A DNA stretch of 64,000 nt from Candidatus Buchananbacteria bacterium. Its GTDB lineage: Bacteria > Patescibacteriota > Patescibacteriia > 2-01-FULL-39-33 > JBAYJR01. The position numbers and the translations under genes are program-made. The notes below the pieces were generated by a model. That model was given only the letters and a program-made list of their open reading frames with translations, searched no databases and was not told where the DNA came from. The stretch is taken from the NCBI GenBank assembly GCA_041665005.1, contig JBAYJR010000008.1, positions 1,423 through 65,422 on the forward strand, read 5' to 3'. Below are positions 4,722-35,098 of the stretch, piece by piece (the stretch's first letter is position 1; the number at the start of each line of letters is the position of its first letter).

Positions 4722-4757
4722 CTCAATAAAAAAACCACCGATTAATTACGGTGGTTA
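4722..4757 (-). terminator. Rho-independent terminator downstream of the cupin gene
   Basis: Hairpin aaccaccg-attaattac-ggtggtt with a T8 run on the minus strand. Confidence 0.5.
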
Positions 4758-4790: not shown

Positions 4791-5225
4791 CTACCAATCC
4801 AACGACATTGGTTCAATAACATCATCCTTAGGGTTCGGAGCTGGAGTTAGAATACAAAAATAAACTAACTGCTCCATCATTCCTCCGGCCTTACGAAAAG
4901 CGTGAACTACACCCGGTGGAATTATTACACAATCACCTAGCGCCACCTTAGTTATCTTACCAGCCAAAAATACTTCCCCCGCACCCCTTATAATCACACA
5001 AATTTCTTCCGATTTCTGGTGGCGGTGTAAAGGACCTTTGGTCTCAATAGCCACCTCAGTTAAACTTAAATTTTTAGCACCATTTTTTGGACTGACCAAT
5101 TGGTGCACTACTCCGATTCTCTCTCGGAGTAAGCCTGGAGTTTGCGGATTTTGCTCAATTAATACCCAATTATGCTGGGCATTCAATTTTTCTGCTAATA
5201 AAACAATTCCTGTTTTTTTGCTCAT
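4791..5225 (-). CDS. Cupin-fold protein (cupin_2 / sugar-isomerase-like small barrel)
   Basis: 144 aa with a cupin-like motif (GDCVIIPPGVVHAF). Strong RBS AGGAGG upstream. It is the last gene of the pilus operon. Confidence 0.55.
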   Translation of the reverse strand: MSKKTGIVLLAEKLNAQHNWVLIEQNPQTPGLLRERIGVVHQLVSPKNGAKNLSLTEVAIETKGPLHRHQKSEEICVIIRGAGEVFLAGKITKVALGDCVIIPPGVVHAFRKAGGMMEQLVYFCILTPAPNPKDDVIEPMSLDW

Positions 5226-5307: not shown

Positions 5308-6057
5308 CTAAAAAACCAAACTAAAATACCAAGTTAAAATCGGCTGACCCCACAATAGCATCACCCAAGTAGCCATTACCAAAAAGGGGCCAAAAGCAAT
5401 TTGATCTTTGAGGGTTTTATCACGCATGGCCATTAACAGCAAAGAAACCACCGCCCCTACAATATAAGCAATCATTAAAGCTAACCATAAATAATGTAAC
5501 CCCAGCAACAAACCCATCAAGGCCCCTAAACGTAAATCACCATCACCAATCCACCGGCCGCGCGAAAAAAAGTATTGAACTCCAAAAAATAAAAAACCAA
5601 TTACTCCACCCAATAATAAATTCAACCAATTTTGCCCTTGCCATAAACCCAACAACATTGCCAAAATAATTGCTGGCAACGAAATTACGTCCGGAATTAT
5701 GCCATAACGCCAATCAAACACTAACAATAAATAAAGCACGCTAACAATAATTAAATACCACAAATAATTAGTTGTTAGACCATAAACCGCATAACCGGTT
5801 AAAAAATAAACTACCGTACCTAGTTCAACCAAAGGATAATAGGCCGAAATCTTTTGGTGGCAATGCCGACATTTGCCCCCTAAAAAAACGTAACTTAAAA
5901 CGGGCACTAAATCAGTAACCGACAAAACATGTTGACAGTTAGGGCACTTGGACCGGCCCTTAACCATACTTTCTTGTTTATACAAACGATAAACTAAGGC
6001 CGTAAAAAAACTGCCAAAAATTAAAGCAAAAATAATTATCAAAAAAACAATTGCCAT
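5308..6057 (-). CDS. pilD: Prepilin peptidase (A24 family leader peptidase / N-methyltransferase)
   Basis: 249 aa polytopic membrane protein. N-terminal CxxC...CxxC zinc motif (CPNCQH...CRHCHQ) followed by multiple TM helices. It is adjacent to the pilin gene. Confidence 0.85.
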   Translation of the reverse strand: MAIVFLIIIFALIFGSFFTALVYRLYKQESMVKGRSKCPNCQHVLSVTDLVPVLSYVFLGGKCRHCHQKISAYYPLVELGTVVYFLTGYAVYGLTTNYLWYLIIVSVLYLLLVFDWRYGIIPDVISLPAIILAMLLGLWQGQNWLNLLLGGVIGFLFFGVQYFFSRGRWIGDGDLRLGALMGLLLGLHYLWLALMIAYIVGAVVSLLLMAMRDKTLKDQIAFGPFLVMATWVMLLWGQPILTWYFSLVF

Positions 6058-6061
6058 AAAA

Positions 6062-8293
6062 TTATTTAATATTTAAATTTTTTGCTAACAATAAATATTG
6101 CTGGGCTAACACTGGCTTACCCATTTCATTATACAACAAACCAGCCCATTGATACCACTGGACTTGTTCTGGCTGTAATTTAATTAGATGCAAAACAATA
6201 CTTAAAGCTTCAGTTTTAGGGCCTATTTGATGGGTAATTTCTACTAAAATTTTAAGTATCTGCGGATCTAAGGATAAGTGATAAGCCTGCCAAAAACTAC
6301 TTTTAGCCAACGCTATTTTTTTTTGTTGAAAATAGACCTGCCCCAAATCCTGATAAGCCAAAGCTTGTTCCTGAGCAATTAACCGCCGATGCTCTTCATT
6401 AACTCGCCAATCAATTAATGGCGGATAAAGCGCCAAGGCTTGTTTAATTTGCTGTTCCGCTAAATCATATTTTTGCCAAAATAAATACAACTTGCCCCAT
6501 TCGGCCGGCAACCGTGCCATTTGTGGGCTAAGTTTTACCAAAGCCTTAAAGGTTTGTTCGGCAGCCAAAAAATAATCAGGTTTTAAATAATAACCCGCCA
6601 AGACTTGCCACTGAGCTAATTTTAATAAGGCTTCTGGCTCTAACCACAAATAATCAATTTGCTGTAAATTATTAAAACCTAAGTCAATCACCTGTTGTTT
6701 TTGCTCGGAAGTTAAATTAGGATTTAAAAAATTCTGCAACGACTGCGCTAATTGCCAACGATAATACCCTTCGCCACTATTTAAAGCAAAAACTCTCTCA
6801 TATGCCTTGATCATTTTTTGATAACCACCAACTCTTTCCCAAAATTTAGCTTGAGCGAAGTTTTGTTCCGCAGCTAATCTTTGATAATTAAAAAGCGTAA
6901 ACCAAACAAGCATTAAAGCTAAAACTACCACTAAAAAAATCTTAAACCAAACTGACAATTTTATTTGATAAATTTTTATTTGGGCTACTGGCGCAGCTAA
7001 TAAGGCGATAAACAACCAAAAATATAAACCACTAACCACAGTAGTAAAATTAAATTGATTAGCCAATAAATAACCGGCCAAAGCTAAAAATAAAAATTGA
7101 TTTAGCGGATCGATTGTAGTCTTTAAATTTAACCAAGCTAAAAAAACAATCAGGCCTAACACTGCTAGCCAAGCCAATAAACCCAAATAACCGCTGGTCA
7201 ACAATACATCCAAAGTTTCATTATGCGTTCGATCGGGAATAGTATTAATTTTTTCATGCAAAGCAATTTGCGGAATATAGGTGTCGGCCAAAACCAAACT
7301 TTGAGTTTCTTGACCATAACCCCAGGCCGGCAACTTTGGCAATTTACTAGCCGCCGCTTGCCAAAAAAGCCAACGCGAAGCCAAAGAACCATACTGCCAA
7401 TTAAATAAAGTTTGCCAACGAGTTTGTAAATTTTCTGTAAAACCCGGACGGGCCACGGTTTGTATTACTTGACCGCTATACTGCCAAACTAAAAAGCCAT
7501 AACCTAAACTTAACAAGATTAAACCGCTAACCAAAACCAACAACCAACGATAAAACTTTTTTTGGCTCAGCCAATAACCAACTAAGATAATAATTTGACC
7601 CAACAACCCCAGCCAAATAGTTCGCGAAAAAGTAAAAAATAATGCACTAAATTGCCCCACTAACAACAATCGCAACAACCAACGACTTGGCTTTAAACTT
7701 TGCCGCGTCTGATACCAAACTAAGGGCCAAGTTAGCAATAAAAATAAACCTAAAAAATTTGGTTGGCCAAAGGTGGAAAATACTCGCCAAGTAATACTGG
7801 GAGCTTCTGACCAAGCCACTACATCCAAGCCGGCTAACTGACACCAAGCGTAAATAATCACTAAAGCCACTGAACCAATAATGGCTTTAAGCCAATAACG
7901 TTTTTTATCAATCAAAAAAATTTGTAAAGCTAACCAAAAAAATAATAAATAATGCATTATTAGCCACAAACCCTGCTCCCGCCAATAAGAACCCCAAAAA
8001 CTTAAATGTGGACTAATCGAAAATATTGCAGCTAATACTTGAGTAAATAAAAAAATCGCTATTACTAACATCGCTTGCCCTTGCCAAACTAAATTTACTG
8101 AATCTAACCACAGGTTTTTTATCAACCAAACAATTAACAACAATTCAATCAACCAACAACCAATTACCGCTTTATCTAGTTCAAAAATATTCCAACCTCG
8201 CCAATTAAAATAAACTGGCACAATAAAAATAGTAACTGCTAAAATTGCCACTAAAACCGAGTTTAAAATCTTTACTAAATATTGCTTAGACAT
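6062..8293 (-). CDS. O-antigen-ligase (Wzy_C) family polytopic membrane protein with C-terminal TPR repeats. Putative pilin O-oligosaccharyltransferase (TfpO/PglL-like).
   Basis: 743 aa. About 12 TM helices in the N-terminal 450 aa with a Wzy_C-like core, then a C-terminal TPR-like repeat region (e.g. ...YLLLAKNLNIK). It lies immediately downstream of the pilin gene. Confidence 0.6.
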   Translation of the reverse strand: MSKQYLVKILNSVLVAILAVTIFIVPVYFNWRGWNIFELDKAVIGCWLIELLLIVWLIKNLWLDSVNLVWQGQAMLVIAIFLFTQVLAAIFSISPHLSFWGSYWREQGLWLIMHYLLFFWLALQIFLIDKKRYWLKAIIGSVALVIIYAWCQLAGLDVVAWSEAPSITWRVFSTFGQPNFLGLFLLLTWPLVWYQTRQSLKPSRWLLRLLLVGQFSALFFTFSRTIWLGLLGQIIILVGYWLSQKKFYRWLLVLVSGLILLSLGYGFLVWQYSGQVIQTVARPGFTENLQTRWQTLFNWQYGSLASRWLFWQAAASKLPKLPAWGYGQETQSLVLADTYIPQIALHEKINTIPDRTHNETLDVLLTSGYLGLLAWLAVLGLIVFLAWLNLKTTIDPLNQFLFLALAGYLLANQFNFTTVVSGLYFWLFIALLAAPVAQIKIYQIKLSVWFKIFLVVVLALMLVWFTLFNYQRLAAEQNFAQAKFWERVGGYQKMIKAYERVFALNSGEGYYRWQLAQSLQNFLNPNLTSEQKQQVIDLGFNNLQQIDYLWLEPEALLKLAQWQVLAGYYLKPDYFLAAEQTFKALVKLSPQMARLPAEWGKLYLFWQKYDLAEQQIKQALALYPPLIDWRVNEEHRRLIAQEQALAYQDLGQVYFQQKKIALAKSSFWQAYHLSLDPQILKILVEITHQIGPKTEALSIVLHLIKLQPEQVQWYQWAGLLYNEMGKPVLAQQYLLLAKNLNIK

Positions 8294-8331
8294 GTTCTTA
8301 TTATAACAAAAAATTAAAGAAAAAAAACAAA

Positions 8332-8379
8332 CCCCCCATCTTTTAAACGACTAGAGCTAATCGGCTAAAAGATGGGGGG
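8332..8379 (-). terminator. Strong rho-independent terminator after the pilin gene
   Basis: A perfect 14-bp inverted repeat (ccccccatctttta / taaaagatgggggg) separated by 20 nt, followed on the minus strand by a T-run. Confidence 0.65.
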
Positions 8380-8411
8380 TAAGCTTTTAAAGGATCCCCA
8401 AAAAACTTAAC

Positions 8412-8804
8412 TTATGGATTTGATAAACCCGATGGGGTAGCAGTATGGGTGCCGGCTGTAATATCACCAACCGCACTTTCTATCGAATAACCAATAGTAT
8501 AACTAGCGCCACTATCTCGTTGCGTATAAGTATACGTTGCGCCACCCGGACCGGGGTTAGTTGGTACTAAAGTCATATAAGTACCGATCGTACCACCAGA
8601 AGTCACCGTAGCTGGATAGCTGTTATTATCTGTATAATACAACTCTAAGGCAGTCTGAACTTGTTTAATATCAGACAAACGTCGAGCGTCCCGGGATTTT
8701 TGTCTAGCTGAATTTAAAGAAATTACCGCCAAAGTTGATAATAAACCAATAATAGCGATAACCACTAACAATTCAATCAAGGTAAAACCTTTTCGTTTAA
8801 TCAT
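8412..8804 (-). CDS. Type IV (major) pilin with a class III prepilin signal
   Basis: 130 aa. N-terminus MIKRKGFTLIELLVVIAIIGLLSTLAV shows the G|FTLIE cleavage/methylation motif and conserved E5. GGAGGTG RBS upstream, and a dedicated strong terminator. Confidence 0.85.
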   Translation of the reverse strand: MIKRKGFTLIELLVVIAIIGLLSTLAVISLNSARQKSRDARRLSDIKQVQTALELYYTDNNSYPATVTSGGTIGTYMTLVPTNPGPGGATYTYTQRDSGASYTIGYSIESAVGDITAGTHTATPSGLSNP

Positions 8805-8858
8805 GTCTTCACCTCCCCTCTCTTATATAGAATTAAATATTAAGTAAAAATACAAGCC

Positions 8859-9251
8859 CTATTTTAAACCAATAATCTTTTTAATCTTGGCAACCACTTC
8901 GGATGGCATAAAATGGGCTTTTATTAAATAATCTTTGGCCCCCATCGCTAAGCCCCGATCAACATCTCCTTTTTGCGAAAGATTAGTTAATAAGATAACC
9001 GGAATATCTTTAGTATCCTGACCTTTTTTTAAAGTTTCTAAAACCACAAAACCATTTATTTTTGGTAGAATTAAATCTAACAAAATAATATCTGGCACCT
9101 TTTTTTGCACCAATTCTAAGGCTTTTTCGCCATCCATAGCCAAGATTACTTCAAAATTCTCTAACTTAAACTTAGTGGCATACAGTTCTGCTAAAAAAGC
9201 ATCATCCTCAACCAATAAAATTTTAATTTTTTTGTCACTTTTGACTGTCAT
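8859..9251 (-). CDS. Single-domain CheY-like response regulator (PilH/PilG-like)
   Basis: 130 aa receiver domain (KILLVEDD...DIILLDLILPKINGF...K). It is embedded between pilB and the pilin gene. Confidence 0.8.
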   Translation of the reverse strand: MTVKSDKKIKILLVEDDAFLAELYATKFKLENFEVILAMDGEKALELVQKKVPDIILLDLILPKINGFVVLETLKKGQDTKDIPVILLTNLSQKGDVDRGLAMGAKDYLIKAHFMPSEVVAKIKKIIGLK

Positions 9252-9257
9252 AAATAA

Positions 9258-10502
9258 TTAACTAATATTTTTGATCACTTCTTCCAAGGTAGTTAGCCCC
9301 TGACTGGCTTTTATTATACCATCAACTGCTAAAAAGATAAACTCCGGATCTAATTTAGTCAAGCTCTCGGCCGTCAATTCGCCACCTTCAATGAGATAAT
9401 TTTTCAAGGGCTCATTTAATTCAAAAATTTCCGCCAAAACCATTCTACCCTTATAGCCTGTTTGGCTACAATGTGGGCAACCAGCGCCCCGATAAAAAAC
9501 CAAATTTTCGGGATCTATCAAACCTGTAGGAGTCGACTTAACTAACGCTTTGGCAATTTTAAGTAACCCAGGAGCCGGCGTGGTTTCTACTCGGCAATCG
9601 GGACAAATTTTACGCACTAACCTCTGACTAATAATTAAACCCAAAGCTTCGGTTAGCAAAAAAGTTGGTAAGCCCATTTCTAATAACCGCTTGACCGTGC
9701 TTAAAACATCTGAGGTGGCCAAAGAAGAAAAAACTTTTTTATTAAAGGTGGCTACCCAACCGGCTAATTCTACCGCCGTAACGCTATCCAAGGTATCTAA
9801 CAACAAAATATCAGGCTCTTGTTTTAAGGCAACCTGCAAGGCCTCATTTAAATTTGAATCGTGCAAAGAGCCTAAAGAAATTTGATTAACTCCCGACAAA
9901 TAGCGTTCAATCGGCTCTTCTAAAGTGGTAATATTTACCGCTTCACTGTTTAAAATATTTAACAACGTGTACAGGGTGGTGGTTTTGCCTGAATTAACTT
10001 TGCCCGTTACTAAAAACAGGCCACCGCGGGTTAATTTTTTTTCAATCTGACTAAGATGATAATCAGCAAAGCCCAGCTCCACTAAAGTTTGCGGTTGATC
10101 GTAAGCGCTAACTAAATGTAAAACTACTTTTTCGCCTTCAATCATCGGCAAAAAATAAACTAAAACGTTATAAATTTTTCCTTCATATTCAAGTTTATAA
10201 CTGGCTGCCTGGGGTTGCAAATCTTTGGCCGGCGGCAAACCGACTAATTGACGTAAAGCTTGTAGCAAAGAAACTAATACCGTCGCACTTAAAGTTAGCG
10301 AAGAATGCAAAATTCCATCCACGCGATAACGTATTCTTACCTCACCCGCGCTAGGTTCAATATGAATATCCGTCGCCCGACCGTCTAAAGCGTTTTTGAT
10401 AATCACCTCTAAAATCTTTTGTCCGGAAACCAAAGCTTCGATCGATTGATCAGCTTTAGTCAAAGCGGGAGTAACTGCTGTGAAATTATTTTTAACTGAC
10501 AT
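9258..10502 (-). CDS. pilB: Type IV pilus assembly ATPase (PilB/GspE family, short form lacking the N-terminal domain)
   Basis: 414 aa. Walker A GKVNSGKTTTL, Asp/His boxes, and a C-terminal tetracysteine motif (CPDC...CPHC) characteristic of GspE/PilB rather than PilT. Confidence 0.8.
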   Translation of the reverse strand: MSVKNNFTAVTPALTKADQSIEALVSGQKILEVIIKNALDGRATDIHIEPSAGEVRIRYRVDGILHSSLTLSATVLVSLLQALRQLVGLPPAKDLQPQAASYKLEYEGKIYNVLVYFLPMIEGEKVVLHLVSAYDQPQTLVELGFADYHLSQIEKKLTRGGLFLVTGKVNSGKTTTLYTLLNILNSEAVNITTLEEPIERYLSGVNQISLGSLHDSNLNEALQVALKQEPDILLLDTLDSVTAVELAGWVATFNKKVFSSLATSDVLSTVKRLLEMGLPTFLLTEALGLIISQRLVRKICPDCRVETTPAPGLLKIAKALVKSTPTGLIDPENLVFYRGAGCPHCSQTGYKGRMVLAEIFELNEPLKNYLIEGGELTAESLTKLDPEFIFLAVDGIIKASQGLTTLEEVIKNIS

Positions 10503-10504
10503 AA

Positions 10505-11584
10505 TTAAGGCACTAGATTACTTGACTGCCACACAAAATTAGCGGTAAAACTTTCTTGCTCAGTAACCGGGGTATTTAAGGTAAAAATTAAACCACTTAA
10601 ATTATCAATTTTTTGCCAAACCATTTCTTGACGCTTAACCACTGCCGCCGTAGTCGCTAAACCACTAACAGCAATCTGATTACCACTAACTTTTACTTCA
10701 CTAATTTTTACTCCAGGTAATAAGCCACTCCGCAAAGCTTGATAAACTTCTAACTGAACTAGGCTTTGTCGATTAGCTTGACCTGAAATATTATCTAAAA
10801 AATTTTGTTGCGCTGAATCATAGTTATTAATTACGCCTTCTAGACCACTCACCCGTTTTTCTAGGCCGCTAATTTTTTGTTCCAAAAGATTGTTACGCTG
10901 CAATAAATAATTATCAGTCGTACGTAAAATTAAATAAAAAGATAACACAATAATAATAATTAACAAATAAACCAGAGCGGGAAAAAACGACGCCCAGTCA
11001 AAAAAATCATTTGGCGCTGTCTTAGCTTTAATTTTTTCTGCCCCGGCTGTTAAACCAAGTTTAGGGGTAGGAGTAGAAATTAATTTCTCAGAATTCAGGC
11101 GATTAAAATATTGCCAAAAACCTGGCCGAACTACCGGCTTGTTTAAAGGTTTAATCACTGGTTTAGTGATATTGGCCGGCACCGAATTTTTAGCAACTGC
11201 TTTATAAGTAGCTGGCGGTGGCAAATTAGGTAATTTAACCGTGCTCGCCATTTTAGGCTTAAAACTAAACCACCGGCGCCAAAAACTTCGCCTAACCACA
11301 ACTACTGGCTTTTTAAACGGCGCTTTAGGCTGAGGCTTAACCGCCACTCGGATCTGTCTGATTTCCGGCAATGGCGGACGACTAATTGGTCGACTGGTTT
11401 TAACCACGGGGGGCTGAAAAAATAATCTCTGCCATAAAGACAGACTGGGCTGTTTAACGATAGAATTCTTGGCTTGAGGTGAAACGTACTTAATGTCTGC
11501 CGAGGGCTTTTGTTTTTGCAATTTTTTTTGCAACTTTTCCTCAGACCAACGCAGCTCGGGTGGCAATAAATTAACGTTGGGCAT
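10505..11584 (-). CDS. PilN/PilO-like inner-membrane pilus alignment protein with atypical architecture
   Basis: 359 aa. N-terminal PilN-like NLLPPELRW motif, then about 170 aa of Pro/Lys-rich linker, one TM helix (FFPALVYLLIIIIVLSFYLIL), a coiled coil and a periplasmic domain. Located between pilM and pilB. Confidence 0.45.
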   Translation of the reverse strand: MPNVNLLPPELRWSEEKLQKKLQKQKPSADIKYVSPQAKNSIVKQPSLSLWQRLFFQPPVVKTSRPISRPPLPEIRQIRVAVKPQPKAPFKKPVVVVRRSFWRRWFSFKPKMASTVKLPNLPPPATYKAVAKNSVPANITKPVIKPLNKPVVRPGFWQYFNRLNSEKLISTPTPKLGLTAGAEKIKAKTAPNDFFDWASFFPALVYLLIIIIVLSFYLILRTTDNYLLQRNNLLEQKISGLEKRVSGLEGVINNYDSAQQNFLDNISGQANRQSLVQLEVYQALRSGLLPGVKISEVKVSGNQIAVSGLATTAAVVKRQEMVWQKIDNLSGLIFTLNTPVTEQESFTANFVWQSSNLVP

Positions 11585-11615
11585 AATGTTTTATTTTGTT
11601 TTATTTTTTAATTTT

Positions 11616-12710
11616 TTAAATAATTTCTCGCATTGCTAAGCCAACGGCGATAGACATCCGTGAACCAACTACATCCAAAACCGGTTTTAATTCTTCCGGA
11701 TACATCACTCTCGCCCAAGGATCCCCCAAATATACCTTAGTGCCTAAAATATTTGCTAAAAATTGTGGTAATTCTGGCAATAGCGCCCCGCCACCAGTTA
11801 AAATTACTTTTTCTATTTTTTGACCGGGTTGCTGTTGAAACAAATTATACGTGTATTTGATTTCATTAATAATCGGATTGAGAGCGGTTTGAAAAATTTC
11901 CAATAAATATTGTTGCCCTTTAATTTGCGTTAAGTCTCTTTTGACTTGCTCCGCCTGCCAAACCGATAATTTTAATTTTTCGGCAATTATTTTAGTCGCT
12001 GCCCAACTGCCATGTTGCAAACTCCGATGCAACAAGGGTAAACCATTTTGTACTAAAATAATTGTAGAAGTAGAAGCACCTAAATCCACTAACATGATAG
12101 AGGCCTGATCGTTGCCAATTAAAGAACGAGTCAAAGCAAAATCTTCAGTTTCCAAACTTAATAAATTTAAATCTGCGGCCTTAAAAATATTAATAAAATT
12201 TTCTACCAACCTTTTAGCGGTACCGGTCAACAAAACTTTCAAGTAAGGTTGTTGTTTAGTTAAAATTTGTTTTACCGCACCGTTGCCGTTTTCAAAAAAT
12301 TTACTACTCTTGGCCGCTAAGGGTTCGGGCCTAGCTTCGGCCACCACCTTCCAATCAATAATTACTTGATCCAAAGGTAACGGAATTAATTTTTTAGCTT
12401 CACTAAAAACTGCCTCCTTTAATTCTTTCTTTTCTAACTTAGGCAAAGTAATAATTGAAGTATAAACATCAAAACTCGGCAAAGACGCCACTACTTGACG
12501 CGAAGTAGTTTTGGCTTGCACGCAAATCTCTTTTAAAACTTTAGCCACTTCTAGGGTAGCTGGCGTAAAACCAATTTGCGATAAATTAACCAAGTTTTCA
12601 GAAAAACCGTAGGTAATTAGCTTAGGGCGTTTTTTGTCATTAGCTAGCTCCACCACCTTTAAGCCGGCACTGCCCAAATCAACCCCCAAAAAACTTGAAT
12701 TTCTAGCCAT
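11616..12710 (-). CDS. pilM: Type IV pilus assembly protein PilM (actin-like ATPase)
   Basis: 364 aa. N-terminus FLGVDLGSAGLKVVEL matches the PilM/FtsA-like sugar-kinase fold. It is the first gene of the operon. Confidence 0.8.
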   Translation of the reverse strand: MARNSSFLGVDLGSAGLKVVELANDKKRPKLITYGFSENLVNLSQIGFTPATLEVAKVLKEICVQAKTTSRQVVASLPSFDVYTSIITLPKLEKKELKEAVFSEAKKLIPLPLDQVIIDWKVVAEARPEPLAAKSSKFFENGNGAVKQILTKQQPYLKVLLTGTAKRLVENFINIFKAADLNLLSLETEDFALTRSLIGNDQASIMLVDLGASTSTIILVQNGLPLLHRSLQHGSWAATKIIAEKLKLSVWQAEQVKRDLTQIKGQQYLLEIFQTALNPIINEIKYTYNLFQQQPGQKIEKVILTGGGALLPELPQFLANILGTKVYLGDPWARVMYPEELKPVLDVVGSRMSIAVGLAMREII

Positions 12711-19994: not shown

Positions 19995-20993
19995 ATGCCG
20001 AAACTAAAAAACATCTACCTAGCCCTAATTGTTTTAGGCTTGATGTTTTTACCCCTAGCGCCGATGCTTGCCGAAACCACTGTTAAACTACAGGTGCCGC
20101 TATATGGTACTAACGAAATTAGTGGCGAAGCTAGTACCATTTTGCCCACCTACATCGGCTTGTGGTTTAATTTAGTAGTTGGCACCGCTGGAGTGCTGGC
20201 CGCCATTTATATTATGTGGGGCGCTTTTAAGTGGCTAACTGCCGCCGGTAATGCCGCTACCATTAAAGACGCTCAAGAAACTATTTACAGTGCGGTGGCC
20301 GGCTTAATTATCGCCTTATTGGCTTATTCTATTTTATATATTATTAATCCCAACTTAATCAAACTACAATTGCCCGGCTTGTCATCCACAACTTATTCTA
20401 CCGAACCAGCTACTCCCCCAACCACTCAATGCAAGCAAACTCTGCCAACTTCCAACCCCTGTTCCGAGCAATATATTAATTCTGTACTCAATAGCCATCC
20501 TGAAATAAAAAAGTTATGCTCTAACATGGATTCCGGTTATATGTCGCAAATTTGCAGAATAGAAAGTTCTGGTGGCGTACCTACCCTGGTTTCTGGTACT
20601 GATAAATGTAAAGATGGCACCAGTTTTTCTTATGGACTATTTCAAATAAACATTGCGGCTCAAGGTCAAAACATTCAAGCTATAACCAACTCAAGCGCTT
20701 GCACCAATCTAATTATTAATGACAGCACTGGCCAAAATGGCAAACCACTTCAATACTCCAATGGTCGCCAAACCTATGACAGCTATACTGCCTGTAAAGA
20801 CGCCAATCCTGGTAAATTTTGCTACGTTAGTAAATGGGATTGTCGCGCCTCATCTTCCACCTCGGTAGCAGAATGCAAAAAATTACTTTTTGACCCCGAA
20901 ACCAGCATTTTACTTGCTTGCAAAATTTATGGCCGAGAAGGTTATAATGCCTGGCCGGTTAGTAATAAAAAATTACAAGCTTGCACTAATTAA
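19995..20993 (+). CDS. T4SS-pilin-like (VirB2/TrbC-like) membrane protein fused to a C-terminal lysozyme-like (VirB1/SLT-like) Cys-containing domain
   Basis: 332 aa. Signal peptide plus two hydrophobic segments (IYIMWGAFKWLTAAGN...LIIALLAYSILYIINP). C-terminal ...ICRIESSGG...SFSYGLFQIN...GYNAWP resembles the ES...GLMQIN...YNAG transglycosylase motifs. Confidence 0.5.
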   Translation: MPKLKNIYLALIVLGLMFLPLAPMLAETTVKLQVPLYGTNEISGEASTILPTYIGLWFNLVVGTAGVLAAIYIMWGAFKWLTAAGNAATIKDAQETIYSAVAGLIIALLAYSILYIINPNLIKLQLPGLSSTTYSTEPATPPTTQCKQTLPTSNPCSEQYINSVLNSHPEIKKLCSNMDSGYMSQICRIESSGGVPTLVSGTDKCKDGTSFSYGLFQINIAAQGQNIQAITNSSACTNLIINDSTGQNGKPLQYSNGRQTYDSYTACKDANPGKFCYVSKWDCRASSSTSVAECKKLLFDPETSILLACKIYGREGYNAWPVSNKKLQACTN

Positions 20994-21455: not shown

Positions 21456-22394
21456 ATGTCAAAAAAAATCTTCTTCGGTCTAACCCTACTACTCTTAACT
21501 TTTACTATTGCTACTCCCCTATTGGCCGTGGATAAAAGTGCCGCTTTACAAGTAGACCTTGGCTACGGCACCGTAGTGGCAAATTTAGAAACTTATATCG
21601 GCTGGTGGTATAAGTTAATTATGGGCACAGTGGGCGTGTTGGCCACGATTTATATTATGTGGGGTGGTTTTAAATGGCTAACCGCGGCGGGTAGTTCTTC
21701 ACAAATTTCCGACGCCCAAGAAACCATCAAAGCCGCCATCGCCGGGTTGTTGATCGCTTTATTTTCTTTTTCCATACTTTATATTATTAATCCTAATTTA
21801 CTTAATCTAAATACTGAAGGAATAGGAAGTAATGATACTACAACAAGTACCGCCGACAATACTCCCGGTTGTTGCATTAATGAATATGAATCTTTAAAAC
21901 ATTCCTGTTCATATATCATCAAAAGCAACTGTACCACCAGTGATACAGTTAAATTTTACTCTAATACAACCTGCGATAAAGCAAGCAATTATTGTGCATC
22001 TACAAATTCATCAGTATATTGTAGAAGTGACTTGGCTGGTTATAGTTTAATAAAAAAAGGAGACCAGGCGACAATAAATGCCGTAAACAGAAAAACTAAT
22101 TGCAGTTATCTAGAACGTCCAATGTATTCGTCTTATGACGGAAGTGAGGCAACCACTGCTGAATTTATAGCACTTGGTTACACCAGTTACCCACAAAAAT
22201 GTTTATACGAAAGCTGTACAAACACTATATCCTGCTCTGATAAAACCGACGGGACAGCCTGTGATTATCCTAATCAAGCCGGAACACAAAAATGTTTCCG
22301 AGGAGTCTGCAAAACTTGTGTCAATTCTGGAATTAGCTGCAGTAGCGCTTCTTGTTGTAATAGTTTAACCTGTACAAACAACCTCTGCAAATAA
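21456..22394 (+). CDS. T4SS-pilin-like paralog with a Cys-rich (knottin-like) C-terminal domain
   Basis: 312 aa. The N-terminal 120 aa are paralogous to the ORF at 19995, at both protein and DNA level (IYIMWGGFKWLTAAGS...DAQETI...SILYIINPNL). The C-terminal 190 aa contain more than 30 Cys. Confidence 0.5.
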   Translation: MSKKIFFGLTLLLLTFTIATPLLAVDKSAALQVDLGYGTVVANLETYIGWWYKLIMGTVGVLATIYIMWGGFKWLTAAGSSSQISDAQETIKAAIAGLLIALFSFSILYIINPNLLNLNTEGIGSNDTTTSTADNTPGCCINEYESLKHSCSYIIKSNCTTSDTVKFYSNTTCDKASNYCASTNSSVYCRSDLAGYSLIKKGDQATINAVNRKTNCSYLERPMYSSYDGSEATTAEFIALGYTSYPQKCLYESCTNTISCSDKTDGTACDYPNQAGTQKCFRGVCKTCVNSGISCSSASCCNSLTCTNNLCK

Positions 22395-28535: not shown

Positions 28536-28575
28536 CTATCTTATTCCTCTCTCTTCCGCTCATTACTACCCACTG

Positions 28576-28662
28576 CGGAGAGAGTGGGATTCGAACCCAC
28601 GGAACCAATTAAGGTTCGGCAGTTTAGTAAACTGCTGATTTAAACCGCTCATCCATCTCTCC
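28576..28662 (-). tRNA. Type II Ser-like tRNA whose anticodon loop I read as UUACUAA, i.e. anticodon ACU (unusual A34)
   Basis: Hand-folded, 87 nt. Acceptor GGAGAGA/UCUCUCC, G73, 3-bp D-stem GAU/AUC, anticodon stem GCAGU/ACUGC, a 5-bp-stem variable arm and T-arm GUGGG-UUCGAAU-CCCAC. Confidence 0.7.
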
Positions 28663-28863: not shown

Positions 28864-29115
28864 TTACTTCAAAGTATCAACTAACAAAAACTTAATTCTT
28901 TCTTTTCCTTTCCCACTTTTTAAAAATAATTCTTCAACTAAAGCATCTTTTTTACTAATAAACGTTTCATAATAAATAAGAACCCAAGGACTAAATGCTT
29001 TAGTCGACTTTACTTTTCCCCTATTATGATCAATTAGTCTTTGTTTTAAATCAGCAGTACTACCTTTATAGAGCTTATTTATTTTTTTACTTTTCAATAT
29101 ATAAACGTAATACAT
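28864..29115 (-). CDS. Small stand-alone GIY-YIG nuclease domain protein (copy 2)
   Basis: Paralog of 28227..28469 (MYYVYILKSKKINKLYKGSTADLKQRLIDH...GKGKERIKFLL). Start set at the internal ATG 29115, because the upstream part of the track ORF runs through the hairpin repeat. Confidence 0.7.
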   Translation of the reverse strand: MYYVYILKSKKINKLYKGSTADLKQRLIDHNRGKVKSTKAFSPWVLIYYETFISKKDALVEELFLKSGKGKERIKFLLVDTLK

Positions 29116-29137
29116 ATTATTATCTATGAGGTTTTTC

Positions 29138-29215
29138 GGCCCGAGGCCGACCAGCCTTGGGCTGGCAAGACCGTCCCATTCAACCACCCTGGCACCTCTC
29201 CAAATAATTACTTTT
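29138..29215. repeat. GC-rich hairpin element (copy 2) plus a duplicated 5' half of tRNA-Ser(UGA) with its upstream flank
   Basis: 29166-29201 matches the 5' end of the tRNA at 28822-28857 (36 nt, one mismatch), ending inside the anticodon loop. The following aaataattactt also matches the tRNA's upstream flank. The hairpin ggcccgaggccgaccagccttgggc precedes it. Confidence 0.7.
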
Positions 29216-30600: not shown

Positions 30601-32502
30601 TTAAAGATTTTTGGCTTCAGCCTGATTAATAGTTGCTTCGGCAAACTCTCTCTTGGCCGCTTCAATTTCTAATATTTGTCGCGGATCCGAGGTAATTAAC
30701 TGATCTTCGGTATAAGAGGCCACTACTTTAATCGCCGCGTGTTTATCACCGGCAAAAAATATTCCTTCACCCGGTGCACTTTCTAATAATAACAACTTTT
30801 CTCCCTGCGTTAGTAAAAAAGTTTTTTGCACCAAATCAATGGCCGCAGTAGATTGTCTAAGCAATAGCCGCAAAGAAGAATTAGTAATTACGGCCTGCCC
30901 CTCAGGTGATAATAAAAAATCATTAACATCCTGTGAAATAGTAGTCACCCCCAAATAGTAATGACGCGCCCGCTTAACTAAAGCATACAAAAATTTTGCA
31001 GAATCTTCATACATCATCAGCCACCAAGCCTCATCAATAATTAAAATACGTTTTTTTAATTCCGAACGAATCACATTCCAAATATAATAAATAATGGTAT
31101 AAATGGCCATGGGCCGTAATTCATCTTCTAAATCACGAATCGAAAAAACTACCAATTGACTACGCATTTCAACATTTGTTGGATGGTTTAATAAGCCAGA
31201 AAAAGTTCCTTCGGTATATTTTTTTAAACGTAAAGCCAAATCGGCTCCACCTTCCATCCCTTCTAAAATTTCTTGCAAATCCTGTAAAATTGGCATTTCC
31301 GGTTTAGTCTGCAAATCTGTTCCGGGGGTGATGTCTTTTTTGGCATAAGCTTCTAAAATCGCCCGATCCATAATTGAGTCTTCTTGGTGCGTAAATTGTC
31401 CCAACATTATTCGCAACAAACCTTTAATAGCAATGGAAGCGCTCAAAATAATATTAGCCGTTGTGCTTTCTTTTTCAACCGACAAGGGCAAATCAAACGG
31501 ATTAATTTTACTTTCCGAATTTAAGGAAACATTAATATAAGTACCGCCCACCGCCTCGCATAAATGCCGATATTCTCTTTCCGGATCAATAATGATTACA
31601 TCAGTGCCTAGCATTAGGCTACGCAAAACTTCTAGTTTAACTGCGTAAGATTTGCCCGCGCCCGAGGTAGCAAACACTACCATATTGGCATTGGGCAAAG
31701 AAAAACGATCAAATAAAATTAAACTATTATTGTGACGATTAATACCATACAAAACCCCATTATCAGAGGTCAGGTCAGCCGAAGCAAACGGAAAAAAAGA
31801 AGCGGCCGGCGAAGTATTCATATTAGCGGTAATTTGCAATTCATCATTTAACAACGGCAAAGTAGAATTAAAACCTTGTTCAGCTTGAAATAAAACTTTC
31901 TTAGAATAAACTTGGCGTGAACCAAAAATCGCTTCCACTCGATCAGTAATTTCCTCTAATTCTTCTTTACTAAAAGCATACAAGGTAACATAAATTGCCA
32001 CTTGAAAAAATCTTTCCACACCTTGAGTTAAATCATCCCGCAATTTTTCCATATCACGCAAGGCCGTTTCTCGCAACGGATCGCGAGGCGCACCTTTTTC
32101 GGCATCCGCTGATAACTGGGCCTCTAAATTACCTACTTTATTACGTAATTGTTTTAAAATAATCGCAGACTCCACTGGATAAAAATACATGGCAATATCC
32201 AAAGTAGAATCTAAGTTGATAATCGCATTAAACCAACCCATGCTAATATAACGCGGGTAAGTAATAACAAAAATTGTCCGTACAAAACGATCGTTTAGCC
32301 GTAAAAAATTAGCCGATACCTCAAATGCGGCCGGCGCAATTAAGTCCCGAATAGAAACTAAACCTTGTCGATAAATCTGTTCCTCTTCTAAGGTTACCTT
32401 GGCTTCTTCTAAGCTTTTGGGCGCTACCGCTTTAGCGCGGTCTAAAAAAGTACCGGCCTGATTATCCGCAATCTGATCTTTTATTTGTTTGGGGTCAAAC
32501 AT
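30601..32502 (-). CDS. VirB4/TrbE/CagE-family T4SS ATPase, C-terminal ATPase part
   Basis: 633 aa. Walker A FATSGAGKSYA and Walker B IIDEAWWLM (the DEAW motif typical of VirB4). Confidence 0.8.
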   Translation of the reverse strand: MFDPKQIKDQIADNQAGTFLDRAKAVAPKSLEEAKVTLEEEQIYRQGLVSIRDLIAPAAFEVSANFLRLNDRFVRTIFVITYPRYISMGWFNAIINLDSTLDIAMYFYPVESAIILKQLRNKVGNLEAQLSADAEKGAPRDPLRETALRDMEKLRDDLTQGVERFFQVAIYVTLYAFSKEELEEITDRVEAIFGSRQVYSKKVLFQAEQGFNSTLPLLNDELQITANMNTSPAASFFPFASADLTSDNGVLYGINRHNNSLILFDRFSLPNANMVVFATSGAGKSYAVKLEVLRSLMLGTDVIIIDPEREYRHLCEAVGGTYINVSLNSESKINPFDLPLSVEKESTTANIILSASIAIKGLLRIMLGQFTHQEDSIMDRAILEAYAKKDITPGTDLQTKPEMPILQDLQEILEGMEGGADLALRLKKYTEGTFSGLLNHPTNVEMRSQLVVFSIRDLEDELRPMAIYTIIYYIWNVIRSELKKRILIIDEAWWLMMYEDSAKFLYALVKRARHYYLGVTTISQDVNDFLLSPEGQAVITNSSLRLLLRQSTAAIDLVQKTFLLTQGEKLLLLESAPGEGIFFAGDKHAAIKVVASYTEDQLITSDPRQILEIEAAKREFAEATINQAEAKNL

Positions 32503-32511
32503 AAAAAATAA

Positions 32512-33216
32512 TTAGTCTACTCGCAATTCTTCGGGATTAGTCATTTTTTGTTTTTCGGCTAAATCCAAATTATAAGTATTATAAAATAATTCAATCAAAC
32601 TAACGGTGTCTAGTTGCGCCGCCCGCAAACCAATACCGGACAGCCCAGCCAAAACTTTTTCAATCCGCCGATCTAATTCGTGATAATAAGTGCGGAAACG
32701 TTGTTCTTCTAGGCGCAAAGCGGCGGTAGTAAAAAACAAAGAAGCAATCCTTTCCCAGAAACCGCGCCGTTTAAGCGCCTTAGAACTATAAGGCACGACC
32801 ACATAAAATCTTTTGGTCATAATTTGCCCCAATTTAATCAATTCCTTAATCGCTTGGCTATAATCAGCAATTTGCAATCTTAACAATTCATTGCTCTGTT
32901 GCCTTTCTTTTTTATTTAAATCAAGCAAATAGGCATCAATATTTAGTTGGCGCGACTGAATAACAATTTCCAAAGGAAAATCCAACATGTTTAAAAAACC
33001 AACATAATTGCCAATAATCGCCTGCTGTTCTTCTTCGGATTTTAAATCAAAATTAAGACTAGAAACCAACAACACGGCCCGCAAAGAGCCGTCCTTTAAA
33101 ATAACCGTATTTTCTTTAATTTCGGCAATTTCAACAAACCGTTGCGTCGTGGGCGTGGCCGCAGTGGCTTTATGAAATTTTAACGGCCGAGGGCCGGTAT
33201 TAATACTTTGCGCCAT
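32512..33216 (-). CDS. VirB4 N-terminal domain encoded as a separate ORF (split gene, or a frameshifted virB4)
   Basis: 234 aa. ...ENTVILKDGSLRAVLLVSSLNFDLKSEEEQQ... matches the conserved LKDGSL...D...EE block of the VirB4/TrbE N-domain. The stop lies 9 nt before the ATPase ORF's ATG, in a different frame. Confidence 0.55.
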   Translation of the reverse strand: MAQSINTGPRPLKFHKATAATPTTQRFVEIAEIKENTVILKDGSLRAVLLVSSLNFDLKSEEEQQAIIGNYVGFLNMLDFPLEIVIQSRQLNIDAYLLDLNKKERQQSNELLRLQIADYSQAIKELIKLGQIMTKRFYVVVPYSSKALKRRGFWERIASLFFTTAALRLEEQRFRTYYHELDRRIEKVLAGLSGIGLRAAQLDTVSLIELFYNTYNLDLAEKQKMTNPEELRVD

Positions 33217-33276
33217 AGTTATTCAATTATAGCAAATTTTACCTAATTTTTAAATTTTTACCAACCTAAAACTGAT

Positions 33277-33723
33277 TTATTTTTTAAGTTCCGAATTTTC
33301 CCCCGCATAATAGCCACCGGTATCTACAATTAAAGCCAATTCGGACAAACGAGAAACGCCAATCGCCTTTTTAAACATTGGCTGACTAGGGATTACTGGC
33401 ATTAAAGGTTGTTTTAGATAACTTTTTAGTTCCGCGGTGCTGTATTTTTTTCGCCAAATCCGTAATCGTGGTTTTTTAGAAGTTTCTACAAAATTGATTA
33501 AAAAATAATGAAAGGGTTGACCGTTGATTTTTAAAAACCCTAAAACCAAAACCAACAACCCTAAAACAATCGTCAAAAAAATAAAAAGGCCAATATCAGA
33601 AACTTTATATGCAATAAATTCTAAACCGCCGCCCACCACCAAAATAACAAACTGTCGGGTAGTAATCGGCCCAATAATTTTATCTTCTACTTCTAAAAAT
33701 TGTGGTACGGTAAATGCTTCCAT
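33277..33723 (-). CDS. VirB3/PrgI-like small membrane protein
   Basis: 148 aa. The N-terminus reads TVPQFLEVEDKIIGPITTRQFV and is followed by two TM helices. It lies immediately upstream of virB4, as PrgI/VirB3 do. Confidence 0.45.
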   Translation of the reverse strand: MEAFTVPQFLEVEDKIIGPITTRQFVILVVGGGLEFIAYKVSDIGLFIFLTIVLGLLVLVLGFLKINGQPFHYFLINFVETSKKPRLRIWRKKYSTAELKSYLKQPLMPVIPSQPMFKKAIGVSRLSELALIVDTGGYYAGENSELKK

Positions 33724-33766
33724 GTTTTTTACTAAATTATTTTACTAATCTGCTAACTCGCTTATC

Positions 33767-35098
33767 CTAATATTTTAGCTGCTTATTTAATTCCGCCAAA
33801 GCCTGAAATTCGGCTAAAGTTAAGGTCGGCTGATTGTTTTGCTGACGAAGGCTAATTGCCTCGCTTAATGCCTGACTAGCTAATAAGGCTTGCTGAATAA
33901 TTTGTAAATATAATTGATTTACCGGACTACTTTGCCAAGCCTTAATCCCTGCCACTTTTTTCGCAATCCCTTCGGTGGATAACAGTTCGATCTTACCACG
34001 AATTTTTTGGCGCGCTTGTTCCGGATCAGGGTTTAACCGCCGAAAATCAATCAAATCAAAGCCGGCTAATTCTTCCACTGGACCTACTAACTTTTTAGCA
34101 TATTTAATATCTTCAATCACCGGTTTTTGTGGCAATAAATCTGCGGACTTTTTAAAACCCGATGGCGCCTGTGGTTGGCCTGGTCTAGGATTAGCGTTAA
34201 CCGTTGCCATTCTTTTGGCCTGCATTAATTGATCGGTTTCGGCTACTTGATCGCTAGTCGCCAAAGTTTCCGAAGACTGCCGTAAACTTTCTAGGCTCCG
34301 ACGTTGACGATCAACAATAGTCAAAAGATTTTCGGCTTGTTCTTTGGTTAAACTTACCCCCCCGGCCGAAGCTTCATGCATTAAAAAGCCTCTAGTTTCT
34401 ACCCAATCACGAACACCGCGTAAATAAGTCATTAAAATATTAACCAACTTTTTTGTTAACTCCGGTGAAGTCAAGGTTAAACCGGCTAACTGAATTAACC
34501 GCTTGGCCTCTTGTTCTAAAATATTTGGTAAATTATCCCGTTGGCGAGCGCTATTCTGATTAGCTAATTTTTTTATTTCTTCCTCATCTTCCGGAAACAA
34601 ATGCCAATTAGAAACCGGCCGATCTAAATTTTCGGCGGATCTAACTATCCCCTGAGGCCGTGTAGGAAAAATTGTCGCCGGTAACTTGACTGGCTTAATT
34701 TCGGTTTTAGCTTCAACGCTAGTTGGCTGAACTATTATTTTGGATGTAATCAAAGGCGCCATTATCGGCTTAGTCGGTGTGGCCGGCGCTTTAACTTCAA
34801 TTTTAGATGCTGTTTTAATATAATTTAAATGCCCCAAAACCGGTTGAAAAATTTTATTTATTAAAATCGTTTTAATCTCTTTGGCTTGCTCAACGGTTAA
34901 GGTAAAATTGGCGGTTAAATAAGTTTCCAATTCTGCTAAAGCCACTTCCTGTTTGGCAATTTTTAAAACCAAATTAAAAGCATTGAGCTGATACTTATCT
35001 TTCAACTCTCTTAAAACCCGTTGGGCCGAAACATTAGCAATGGCTTGCCGCAAATTTGGCGCCAAACTATTAAATTTTGCCAAAACTTCTTCGGACAT
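33767..35098 (-). CDS. Hypothetical soluble protein (443 aa)
   Basis: Long ORF with no TM helices and no recognisable motif. Part of the T4SS-like operon. Confidence 0.4.
   Translation of the reverse strand: MSEEVLAKFNSLAPNLRQAIANVSAQRVLRELKDKYQLNAFNLVLKIAKQEVALAELETYLTANFTLTVEQAKEIKTILINKIFQPVLGHLNYIKTASKIEVKAPATPTKPIMAPLITSKIIVQPTSVEAKTEIKPVKLPATIFPTRPQGIVRSAENLDRPVSNWHLFPEDEEEIKKLANQNSARQRDNLPNILEQEAKRLIQLAGLTLTSPELTKKLVNILMTYLRGVRDWVETRGFLMHEASAGGVSLTKEQAENLLTIVDRQRRSLESLRQSSETLATSDQVAETDQLMQAKRMATVNANPRPGQPQAPSGFKKSADLLPQKPVIEDIKYAKKLVGPVEELAGFDLIDFRRLNPDPEQARQKIRGKIELLSTEGIAKKVAGIKAWQSSPVNQLYLQIIQQALLASQALSEAISLRQQNNQPTLTLAEFQALAELNKQLKY

Follow-up and report, generated by a model that had tools for sequence, protein, structure and literature searches.

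A TPR-fused Wzy_C protein encoded between a pilin gene and pilD in Candidatus Buchananbacteria: a candidate pilin-linked O-oligosaccharyltransferase

PglL homologues, a group of bacterial protein O-oligosaccharyltransferases (O-OTases), are encoded beside pilins in 21 out of 31 cases, and are distinguished from the O-antigen ligase WaaL by the PglL_A motif (PMC3643930). The catalytic Arg/Arg/His residues are R215, R288, and H338 in Escherichia coli WaaL and R224, R298, and H349 in PglL; WaaL activity depends on R288 and H338, both of which have conserved counterparts in PglL (PMC3643930). The genes tfpO and tfpM are located downstream of the cognate pilin gene (PMC9829042), and the encoded enzymes of 420–470 aa contain no extra domain and glycosylate the pilin at its C-terminal Ser/Thr (PMC9829042, Table 2). 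Tetratricopeptide repeats (TPR) are found in TfpW as a periplasmic C-terminal domain (bioRxiv 10.1101/2020.04.19.049825) and in WsfB, which consists of Wzy_C and TPR, while WsaB works beside a separate TPR protein, WsaA (PMC2943079). Here we describe a 743-aa protein with a Wzy_C domain and C-terminal TPR repeats, encoded between a type IV pilin gene and pilD in a 64,000-nt stretch (the window) of contig JBAYJR010000008.1 from Candidatus Buchananbacteria, a tiny uncultured groundwater-type bacterium of the Candidate Phyla Radiation (CPR)/Patescibacteria. Comparative genomics and structure prediction make it moderately probable that this protein is a pilin-linked protein O-OTase, a TPR-fused Wzy_C variant encoded beside the prepilin peptidase.

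The gene is one of eight co-directional open reading frames (ORFs) on the minus strand, running from position 12710 to 4791 in the order pilM, PilN-like, PilB-like, receiver, pilin, Wzy_C/TPR, pilD, and cupin. The same order had been proposed by an earlier reading of the letters alone (the sequence-only reading), and the ORFs and their identities, which were assigned by Pfam and NCBIfam profile searches, agreed with it. The gene order is not an assembly artefact, as the identical sequence was found in two independent assemblies. The 743-aa protein (6062–8293, minus strand, as for all genes of the locus) matched Wzy_C (PF04932, E 5.9e-14) at aa 210–376 with 52.5 bits compared to a gathering cutoff of 31.7, and showed weak TPR_8/TPR_9 matches at aa 646–734, so that the combination of Wzy_C and TPR already suspected was found again by profile. 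NCBI lists the identical protein under the name 'O-antigen ligase family protein'. When genomes were scanned for relatives, with each species represented once, 140 Wzy_C/TPR matches were confirmed, of which the best 80 loci were studied; together with five loci of close homologues these made up 83 non-duplicate loci. By title, the 80 loci were from Patescibacteria or unclassified metagenome-assembled genomes (MAGs), and a few were titled Gammaproteobacteria, Peregrinibacteria, or Planctomycetota.

An AlphaFold2 (AF2) model of the full-length protein (pLDDT 86.8, pTM 0.84) divided it into two parts. The first part, aa 1–437 (6983–8293), is modelled as a catalytic core of 12 transmembrane (TM) helices with the WaaL fold, containing the Wzy_C domain. 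The second part, aa 438–743 (6062–6982), comprises a K-rich cytoplasmic linker, a 13th TM helix (approximately aa 448–470), and a TPR superhelix of about 270 aa (approximately aa 471–743). The fold search with the full-length model was swamped by TPR matches and returned TPR proteins only, including the TPR domains of OGT and SPINDLY (SPY), and aa 1–470 were therefore modelled alone (pLDDT 84.8, pTM 0.86). WaaL (7TPG) was the sole PDB match of this model at E <= 0.001 (E 2.6e-5, TM-score 0.54/0.61), and the family profile matched 7tpg by sequence at 4.4e-13. The TPR part showed structural and profile matches to consensus TPR and to the TPR domains of OGT/SPY, and a single-sequence phmmer search of the 743-aa protein against PDB found designed TPR proteins only.

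In an hhalign alignment with WaaL from E. coli K-12, R307 was placed on R288 and H357 on H338. Both residues were invariant across 20 homologues of 19–29% identity, and R224, which was taken as the equivalent of E. coli WaaL R215 by position only, was nearly so. In the model, R307 and H357 are located in a large outer loop between TM9 and TM10 (approximately aa 271–358), S223-R224 at the outer end of TM7/8, and an STFGQPNFL motif in the loop after TM5. Because of the WaaL fold and the invariant catalytic Arg/His, the enzyme very probably acts on a polyprenyl-pyrophosphate-linked glycan. The topology was derived from the AF2 helices and the loop charges, as a Kyte-Doolittle scan at threshold 1.5 missed three helices. 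With 13 modelled TM helices, all Lys/Arg-rich loops (aa 129–136, 199–212, 244–249, and 438–449) fall on the cytoplasmic side, and the catalytic loop and the TPR domain are consequently predicted to be outside the membrane. In nine loci (L021, L045, L050, L065, L067, L068, L073, L080, and L083), the Wzy_C core (453–489 aa) and the TM-anchored TPR part (295–330 aa) were found as separate adjacent or overlapping ORFs, and at the N-terminus of the separate TPR ORFs a signal-anchor helix follows a short basic segment, in support of the outward topology of the TPR part.

The pilin gene (130 aa; 8412–8804; N_methyl 9.8e-9, TIGR02532) encodes the only pilin in the 64-kb window, where neither a second pilin nor a further class III signal motif was found. 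The pilin has the leader MIKRKG|FTLIE and the C-terminus ...AGTHTATPSGLSNP, and its gene is preceded by a strong Shine-Dalgarno (SD) sequence (GAGGGGAGGTG, about 8811–8822). Among the 83 loci, 30 were found to contain a pilin gene directly 5′ of the Wzy_C/TPR gene, and all 30 pilins belonged to one subfamily with the tail ...[AG]G-x-H-T-A-T-P-x-G-[ILV] followed by 0–3 residues. The window pilin conforms to this pattern (AG-T-H-T-A-T-P-S-G-L-SNP, with T121, T123, S125, and S128 as candidate hydroxyls). Strict matches to the tail motif were found in 27 of the 52 pilin-like ORFs of these loci, and loose matches in another 5. The motif-bearing pilins were nearly all encoded directly upstream of the Wzy_C/TPR gene, and most remaining pilins of the same clusters, many ending in ...RGW, did not contain the motif. 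Among the 71 instances of the motif in 150 representatives of the pilin family, 55 have Thr or Ser before Pro. The tail can reasonably be regarded as a candidate acceptor site. It had been described from the letters as a Ser/Thr/Pro-rich tail; alignment replaces this loose low-complexity tail by a conserved motif that, as judged from sequence comparison, is the structural end of the pilin-head domain. Four proteins of 452–855 aa (P0024, P0030, P0032, and P0037) were found to contain 2–4 tandem pilin-head domains without the hydrophobic pilin N-terminus, each copy closing with ...A-T/S-P-x-G-I, and other members of the family, such as P0041 and P0046, are true pilins with Pro-rich linkers and extra C-terminal domains.

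Two arrangements of the Wzy_C/TPR gene (wzy in gene orders) were found in the neighborhoods. Arrangement A is secD-secF-wzy/TPR-(0–3 genes)-pilD-ftsA-ftsZ, and arrangement B is pilB-receiver-pilT-like-pilC-(minor pilin)-pilin-wzy/TPR-(0–4 genes)-pilD-(minor pilins), in which PilC and the PilT-like ATPase were confirmed by Pfam. pilD was located 0–5 genes downstream of the Wzy_C/TPR gene in 61 of the 83 loci, and 10 of the other 22 loci end less than 3 kb after that gene; about 43 loci contained no nearby pilin (secDF context). In a neighbor-joining (NJ) tree of the core domain, arrangement B was found on both sides of the root and arrangement A formed essentially one clade with a nested B subclade, while L008 showed an intermediate order, pilin-wzy-pilD-ftsA. 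This distribution indicates that arrangement B is probably ancestral and that the wzy-pilD pair was kept together when the upstream pilus genes moved away. As the tree shows essentially one clade, the wzy-pilD adjacency in the secDF...ftsAZ context was down-weighted as independent evidence.

Glycosyltransferase (GT) and methyltransferase genes were found between the Wzy_C/TPR gene and pilD in about 26 loci. The 50 proteins encoded in this interval included 23 GT2, 3 GT4, 2 GT8, and 1 GT9 enzymes, about 12 S-adenosylmethionine (SAM) methyltransferases, and 2 radical SAM enzymes, and in L018 consecutive genes encode GT2, methyltransferase, GT9, PMT_2, and GT2 proteins. Since these proteins are overwhelmingly glycan-building enzymes, the Wzy_C/TPR gene is part of a variable glycosylation island inside the pilus locus. 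A different type of neighbor was seen in L013 (11266–13920), where the gene immediately downstream of pilD, itself followed by more pilin genes, encodes an 884-aa protein with a C-terminal Peptidase_S74 domain (endosialidase chaperone).

The corresponding locus of two other Buchananbacteria (L090 and L091) was found in the same place, flanked by LemA and LigA-GatC-GatA. Its gene order is pilM, pilN, two small genes, PilB, receiver, PilT-like, PilC, and pilin, followed by a small membrane protein, PilD, and four further genes including at least two minor pilins. PilB is full-length in both, with an MshEN domain and canonical motifs, the pilin has a different tail (...CP), and no wzy/TPR gene was found at the L090/L091 locus. 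Compared to these relatives, the window locus, which in terms of gene content is a reduced derivative, has lost pilC and the pilT-like gene along with the pair of small genes that follows pilN and the four pilin-like genes that follow pilD. Because the alternative pilin of the relatives comes without a Wzy_C/TPR gene at the same locus, pilin type and enzyme appear to have been exchanged together, which argues for a cognate pair. Such a joint exchange resembles the pilin/accessory-gene cassettes of Pseudomonas aeruginosa. The small membrane protein encoded between pilin and pilD (15310–15717 in L090 and 15232–15801 in L091) was found to contain a pilin-head-like domain (…RDYERLGDMRVLE…FYLEGSL.GLPSG.YALT.EGLGR) without a class III signal motif.

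The enzyme could be a general protein O-OTase acting on many surface proteins, with the pilin as one substrate or none and the position of the gene reflecting envelope co-regulation. The tandem head domains with the same terminal motif in P0024, P0030, P0032, and P0037 fit such a role, as do the same head domain in pilins with extra C-terminal domains, the loci in secDF context without a nearby pilin, and the fact that PglL-type enzymes are general O-OTases (PMC9829042). We nevertheless regard it as rather unlikely, as the adjacent pilin is of the same subfamily in 30 out of 30 cases, pilin type and enzyme were exchanged together at one Buchananbacteria locus, and in a single MAG each of two loci (L021 and L083) combines a pilin gene with a split enzyme of its own.

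The protein could also be a Wzy-like glycan polymerase, or a ligase whose acceptor is not a protein but, for example, a membrane lipid or cell-wall polymer, with the TPR part binding glycan or serving as a scaffold and the link to the pilus being positional only. Pfam Wzy_C covers ligases as well as polymerases, the one relative of solved structure (WaaL) is a ligase, the NCBI name points in the same direction, and the neighboring secDF and ftsAZ are envelope and division genes; moreover, TPR domains are capable of sugar binding or of scaffolding export machinery (bioRxiv 10.1101/2020.04.19.049825; PMC2943079). Lipid A and lipopolysaccharide (LPS) are, however, absent from the CPR genomes studied (PMC5220378), and the scanned loci showed no genes for polysaccharide export, a co-polymerase, or LCP-type proteins. 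The persistent pairing with one pilin subfamily and a prepilin peptidase is hard to explain in this way, and the alternative pilin cassette of the relatives contains no such enzyme. Polymerization or ligation to a non-protein acceptor is thus considered unlikely.

For the favored pilin-linked O-OTase, we infer activity, donor, acceptor, and acceptor site as follows. The Wzy_C/TPR gene and pilD, possibly with the cupin gene, would encode a pilin-maturation pair. PilD would cleave the MIKRKG leader at the cytoplasmic face, and at the outer face of the membrane the 743-aa enzyme would take an oligosaccharide already assembled on polyprenyl pyrophosphate and transfer it in one piece to the hydroxyl of a Ser or Thr in the pilin head, with other surface proteins containing the same head domain as possible further acceptors. 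The conserved Arg/His loop of the WaaL fold would form the catalytic center, and the outward TPR superhelix, tethered by the 13th TM helix, would capture the acceptor protein, for which TfpW (bioRxiv 10.1101/2020.04.19.049825) and WsfB (PMC2943079) are precedents as TPR-bearing protein glycosyltransferases. The receiver would modulate the pilus motor through the PilB-like protein. The proposal of the sequence-only reading, taken as naming the neighboring Wzy_C enzyme a candidate pilin O-glycosylase, is substantially supported by comparative genomics, the conserved Arg/His, the predicted outward TPR, the glycan genes, and the co-variation of pilin and enzyme; its argument from a Ser/Thr/Pro-rich tail was given up.

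Several observations weigh against pilin glycosylation by this enzyme. No match to PglL_A (PF15864) at E <= 0.01 was found in the 743-aa protein, and no glycosyltransferase, flippase, or initiating phosphoglycosyltransferase was found among the ORFs of the 64-kb window. Much of the wzy-pilD adjacency is shared ancestry and not repeated independent association. It may be that no pilus is assembled from the window locus, given the incomplete machinery and the degenerate ATPase described below. Furthermore, the L006 pilin, encoded beside the closest Wzy_C/TPR homologue, has ANP in place of ATP, and the tail motif also closes pilin-like domains bearing Pro-rich linkers and extra C-terminal domains as well as the head-domain repeats of large proteins without a pilin N-terminus. 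The conserved A-T-P-x-G tail was for this reason rejected as a glycosylation sequon: it ends a structural domain that is found elsewhere too, and ANP replaces it in L006.

The pilin gene is followed by an intrinsic terminator consisting of a hairpin (8331–8380) with a 16-bp outer and a 6-bp inner stem and a U-run (8319–8330). The folding energy was −38.3 kcal/mol (z = −8.8), and none of 200 shuffled sequences folded equally well; a terminator of 14 bp at 8332–8379, read earlier from the letters, was thus essentially right. Of 25 pilin-to-Wzy gaps, a crude script, which undercounts, flagged 14 as containing a comparable GC-rich hairpin with a T-run; by eye, most of the 25 contain one. In the window this gap measures 118 nt. 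A possible extended −10 element (TGTTATAAT, 8300–8308), read from the sequence, is located six nt before the wzy ATG; no −35 hexamer with at least 4 of 6 matches was found for it, and it was hence not listed in the consensus scan. The wzy ATG has no SD sequence. The hairpins between pilin and wzy, the TGTTATAAT element, and the missing SD suggest an abundant pilin and a separate, weakly expressed wzy-pilD transcript that may be leaderless or nearly so. The view of the region as one operon needs correction: the terminator probably divides it into two transcription units, one from pilM to the pilin gene and the other comprising wzy, pilD, and perhaps the cupin gene. The first of these is preceded by two promoter-like sites of sigma-70 type found by consensus scan 5′ of pilM (12905–12876 and 12842–12814, minus strand).

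In the second unit, four nt separate the wzy stop codon from the start of pilD (249 aa; 5308–6057; A24_N_bact 9.1e-29, Peptidase_A24 1.5e-11), whose product, a prepilin peptidase/N-methyltransferase, contains CxxC...CxxC and GDGD motifs in the translation. A Cupin_2 protein (144 aa; 4791–5225; Cupin_2 1.8e-11), encoded just outside the range covered by the sequence-only reading, is possibly the last gene of the unit, and a terminator-like hairpin with T-run (4733–4756; 8 pairs, 5 GC; tail TTTTTATTGA) closes the unit after it. The cupin is not conserved at this position, where relatives have ftsA or minor pilins after pilD. A role of the cupin as a sugar-modifying enzyme was considered and found to be unsupported, since it showed generic Cupin_2 matches only and is not conserved after pilD in relatives.

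The first unit starts with pilM (364 aa; 11616–12710; PilM_2 8.6e-37; TIGR01175 142.3 bits compared to a cutoff of 133). PilM is an actin-like cytoplasmic pilus alignment protein. It is directly followed, as in L006, L090, and L091, by a gene for a PilN-like bitopic protein (359 aa; 10505–11584) without Pfam match. This protein has the N-terminus MPNVNLLPPELR, which we take to be the INLLP-type motif that binds PilM, followed by a long Lys/Pro-rich linker, a TM helix at approximately aa 200–222, and a coiled-coil/periplasmic C-terminal part, and it showed a weak BLASTP alignment, including the NLLP motif, with the protein in PilN position of L006.

The short PilB-like protein (414 aa; 9258–10502; T2SSE 3.7e-67) covers only positions 183–561 of the 564-position TIGR02538 model, and the N-terminal MshEN/T2SSE_N domain is absent. 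Its motifs were compared by alignment with four full-length PilBs and by a motif scan of the two Buchananbacteria PilBs. Walker A (GKVNSGKT) and the zinc-binding tetracysteine motif (CPDC...CPHC) are retained. Walker B is changed from GE(I/V)RD to DTLDS, the His box from TGH...LHTND to NKK...LATSD with loss of both histidines, and PQDGR to PQAASY. From these substitutions the protein is predicted to be catalytically degenerate and hydrolysis-dead. Among 5.8 billion proteins a single close relative was found, P0173 (415 aa, 61% identity), which shows the same motif substitutions and is encoded after a PilN-like gene and before a highly similar receiver; this suggests that the PilB-like protein is a maintained pseudo-ATPase under selection and not a random wreck. 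The PilT-like ATPases of related clusters (344–355 aa; L013 4517–5551 and L008 3257–4303) were found to have no recognizable His box and weak T2SSE matches (1.9e-11). The motors of these related pili may be unusual in general.

The pilB-like gene is followed by a gene for a single-domain CheY-like receiver (130 aa; 8859–9251; Response_reg 4e-22) with the complete phospho-acceptor set D16/D17, D59, T89, and K111. Single-domain orthologues of 126–146 aa (phmmer E 1e-46 to 1e-52 for 10 of them) adjoin pilB in about a dozen related type IV pilus clusters, usually between pilB and the pilT-like gene, and also in L086 and in both Buchananbacteria relatives. Given this recurrence, synteny marks the receiver as a conserved component of the group's pilus loci. 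A precedent for a receiver acting on a pilus extension ATPase is phosphorylated PixG of Synechocystis, which binds PilB1 (PMC11181946), and by analogy the receiver probably modulates the pilus motor via the PilB-like protein as its presumed target. The locus resembles PixG/PixH (Synechocystis) and PilG/PilH (P. aeruginosa) in the association of a receiver with a type IV pilus ATPase, and differs from them in that the receiver is a stand-alone 130-aa domain encoded beside pilB, with no histidine kinase found in the window. A second, weak receiver-like ORF (169 aa; 51266–51775, minus strand; Response_reg 4.6e-7, cREC_REC 1.5e-4) adjoins a FemAB-family gene.

The absence of pilC and pilT from the window, reported earlier from the letters, was confirmed. 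Pfam scans of nearly all window ORFs of at least 100 aa gave no T2SSF domain and no second T2SSE domain, and in phmmer searches of three PilC proteins of related loci and the window PilB against the six-frame translation the PilB gene itself was the sole match. Of the features of a type IVa-like system, a pilin with class III signal peptide, a prepilin peptidase, PilM, and PilN were found, and PilC, an active extension ATPase (Walker B Glu and His box), and minor pilins were not found in the 64-kb window. The locus designated a type IV pilus operon is not self-sufficient for assembly, with the PilB-like motifs lost and pilT and pilC gone. It is best described as a probable reduced type IV pilus locus in two transcription units, and the missing pilC, pilT, and minor pilins may be located elsewhere in the genome, beyond the window. 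The gene losses relative to L090 and L091 and the degenerate ATPase motifs could also mean that the locus is decaying, with pilin, Wzy_C/TPR, and pilD left over and no longer functioning together. This appears highly improbable, as all remaining ORFs are intact and tightly spaced, the Wzy_C catalytic residues and PilD motifs are intact, the pilin retains its strong SD and terminator, and the degenerate PilB has the 61%-identical orthologue P0173, in which the same substitutions and a highly similar adjacent receiver recur.

Outside the pilus locus, further features were found in the window. A leucyl-tRNA synthetase (1172 aa; 53861–57379, minus strand) contains an inserted Ser_hydrolase/alpha-beta-hydrolase domain at aa 611–794 (PF06821, 1.1e-13), and a free-standing member of this hydrolase family (207 aa) is encoded 4 kb away (61280–61903, minus strand). 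A type IV secretion-like cluster (30601–47495, minus strand) encodes a TraG/VirB4-like ATPase, a PrgI-family protein, a 1097-aa protein with weak TrbL/VirB6 similarity, and a 2862-aa protein without any Pfam match, and T4SS_pilin-like ORFs are located at 19995–20993 and 21456–22394. ARAGORN detected a tRNA-Ser with anticodon ACT (28575–28662, minus strand) beside tRNA-Ser(GCT) and tRNA-Ser(TGA), followed by a GIY-YIG ORF (28864–29187); serine tRNAs with A34 are uncommon in bacteria.

A central part in the host attachment of CPR/Patescibacteria is commonly ascribed to type IV pili. Experimental evidence on this is so far from Saccharibacteria, where pilin glycosylation was predicted by a generic predictor only and no transferase was named (PMC12206443), and a literature search on Patescibacteria and O-antigen ligase returned nothing relevant. 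We tentatively raise the possibility, on which we remain more doubtful than convinced, of a lineage-wide protein O-glycosylation module in the pilus locus of Patescibacteria, composed of a WaaL-fold/TPR transferase, a variable GT/methyltransferase island, and a prepilin peptidase. Such a module would decorate the pilin head domain at its T-A-T-P-x-G terminus, the same head domain would be reused in large multi-domain surface proteins, and cassette swaps of pilin and enzyme would bring variety to the glycans displayed by these episymbionts towards hosts and phages. A conserved pilus-linked O-OTase family would provide a testable gene for surface glycosylation in a large uncultured radiation, would help to explain the many glycosyltransferases in small CPR genomes (PMC5220378), and would extend the O-OTase toolbox for bioconjugate engineering by an enzyme with tethered TPR (PMC9829042). 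In the lineage of the window, the degenerate PilB and the receiver could be a new regulatory pair, with bearing on the regulation or remodelling of pilus motors in reduced genomes.

Compared to known systems, and as assigned by curated hidden Markov models (PglL_A, NCBIfam) and not by a reference phylogeny of the classes, the 743-aa protein is a member of the Wzy_C superfamily that belongs to none of its characterised classes; no NCBIfam subfamily, including the WaaL equivalog, matched it. It shares the Wzy_C core and the conserved Arg/His with PglL (PglO; Neisseria, Burkholderia, and others), whereas PglL measures 550–600 aa without a TM-anchored TPR superhelix and the 743-aa protein contains no detectable PglL_A. 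As general O-OTases, PglL-type enzymes modify many proteins, at low-complexity sequons within the chain. With TfpO (PilO; P. aeruginosa 1244 and Acinetobacter) and TfpM (Moraxellaceae) it has in common that a Wzy_C membrane enzyme is encoded right after the pilin gene, that pilin and accessory gene act as a cassette, and that the catalytic His is conserved (PMC9829042). It differs from them by its length of 743 aa, its 13th TM helix, and its external TPR of about 270 aa, by a probably monoderm host, and by the position of pilD after the enzyme gene. Moreover, the window pilin ends in ...TATPSGLSNP with Pro as the last residue and the nearest hydroxyls 2–9 residues from the end, and in related pilins the C-terminal residue is D, N, P, Q, or a similar one. 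The sequence-only reading had placed the gene where the pilin O-glycosylases TfpO/PglL are found; this was right in that the Wzy_C gene follows the pilin and the family is tied to pilin and pilD, and the likeness stops at PglL_A and at the size and C-terminal acceptor of TfpO/TfpM.

TfpW (P. aeruginosa Pa5196/PA7) is similar in that a polytopic pilin glycosyltransferase with a large periplasmic C-terminal TPR is encoded directly after pilA. It differs in being a GT-C enzyme with a DDX motif, for which ArnT served as the modelling template, and in using D-arabinofuranose; no PMT_2 or ArnT-type Pfam match was found in the 743-aa protein, whose modelled fold is WaaL-like. WaaL (Cupriavidus metallidurans 7TPG and E. 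coli K-12) shows the same fold with aligned Arg/His. It has 12 TM helices and approximately 400–420 aa, is encoded in LPS core clusters, and uses a lipid A-core acceptor, and a WaaL role for the 743-aa protein is unlikely, since a CPR Parcubacterium was found to be without lipid A and LPS genes, including lpxC and kdsA (PMC5220378). WsfB of Paenibacillus alvei resembles it by architecture in having Wzy_C with C-terminal TPR in a monoderm host, and WsaB with WsaA of Geobacillus stearothermophilus corresponds to the split form of the nine loci described above. These predicted S-layer protein O-OTases are encoded in S-layer glycan (slg) clusters; no S-layer or slg gene was found among the window ORFs, and the context here is pilin and pilD. 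On the favored reading, the protein is a novel TPR-tethered form of Wzy_C O-OTase and not a member of PglL, TfpO, or WaaL.

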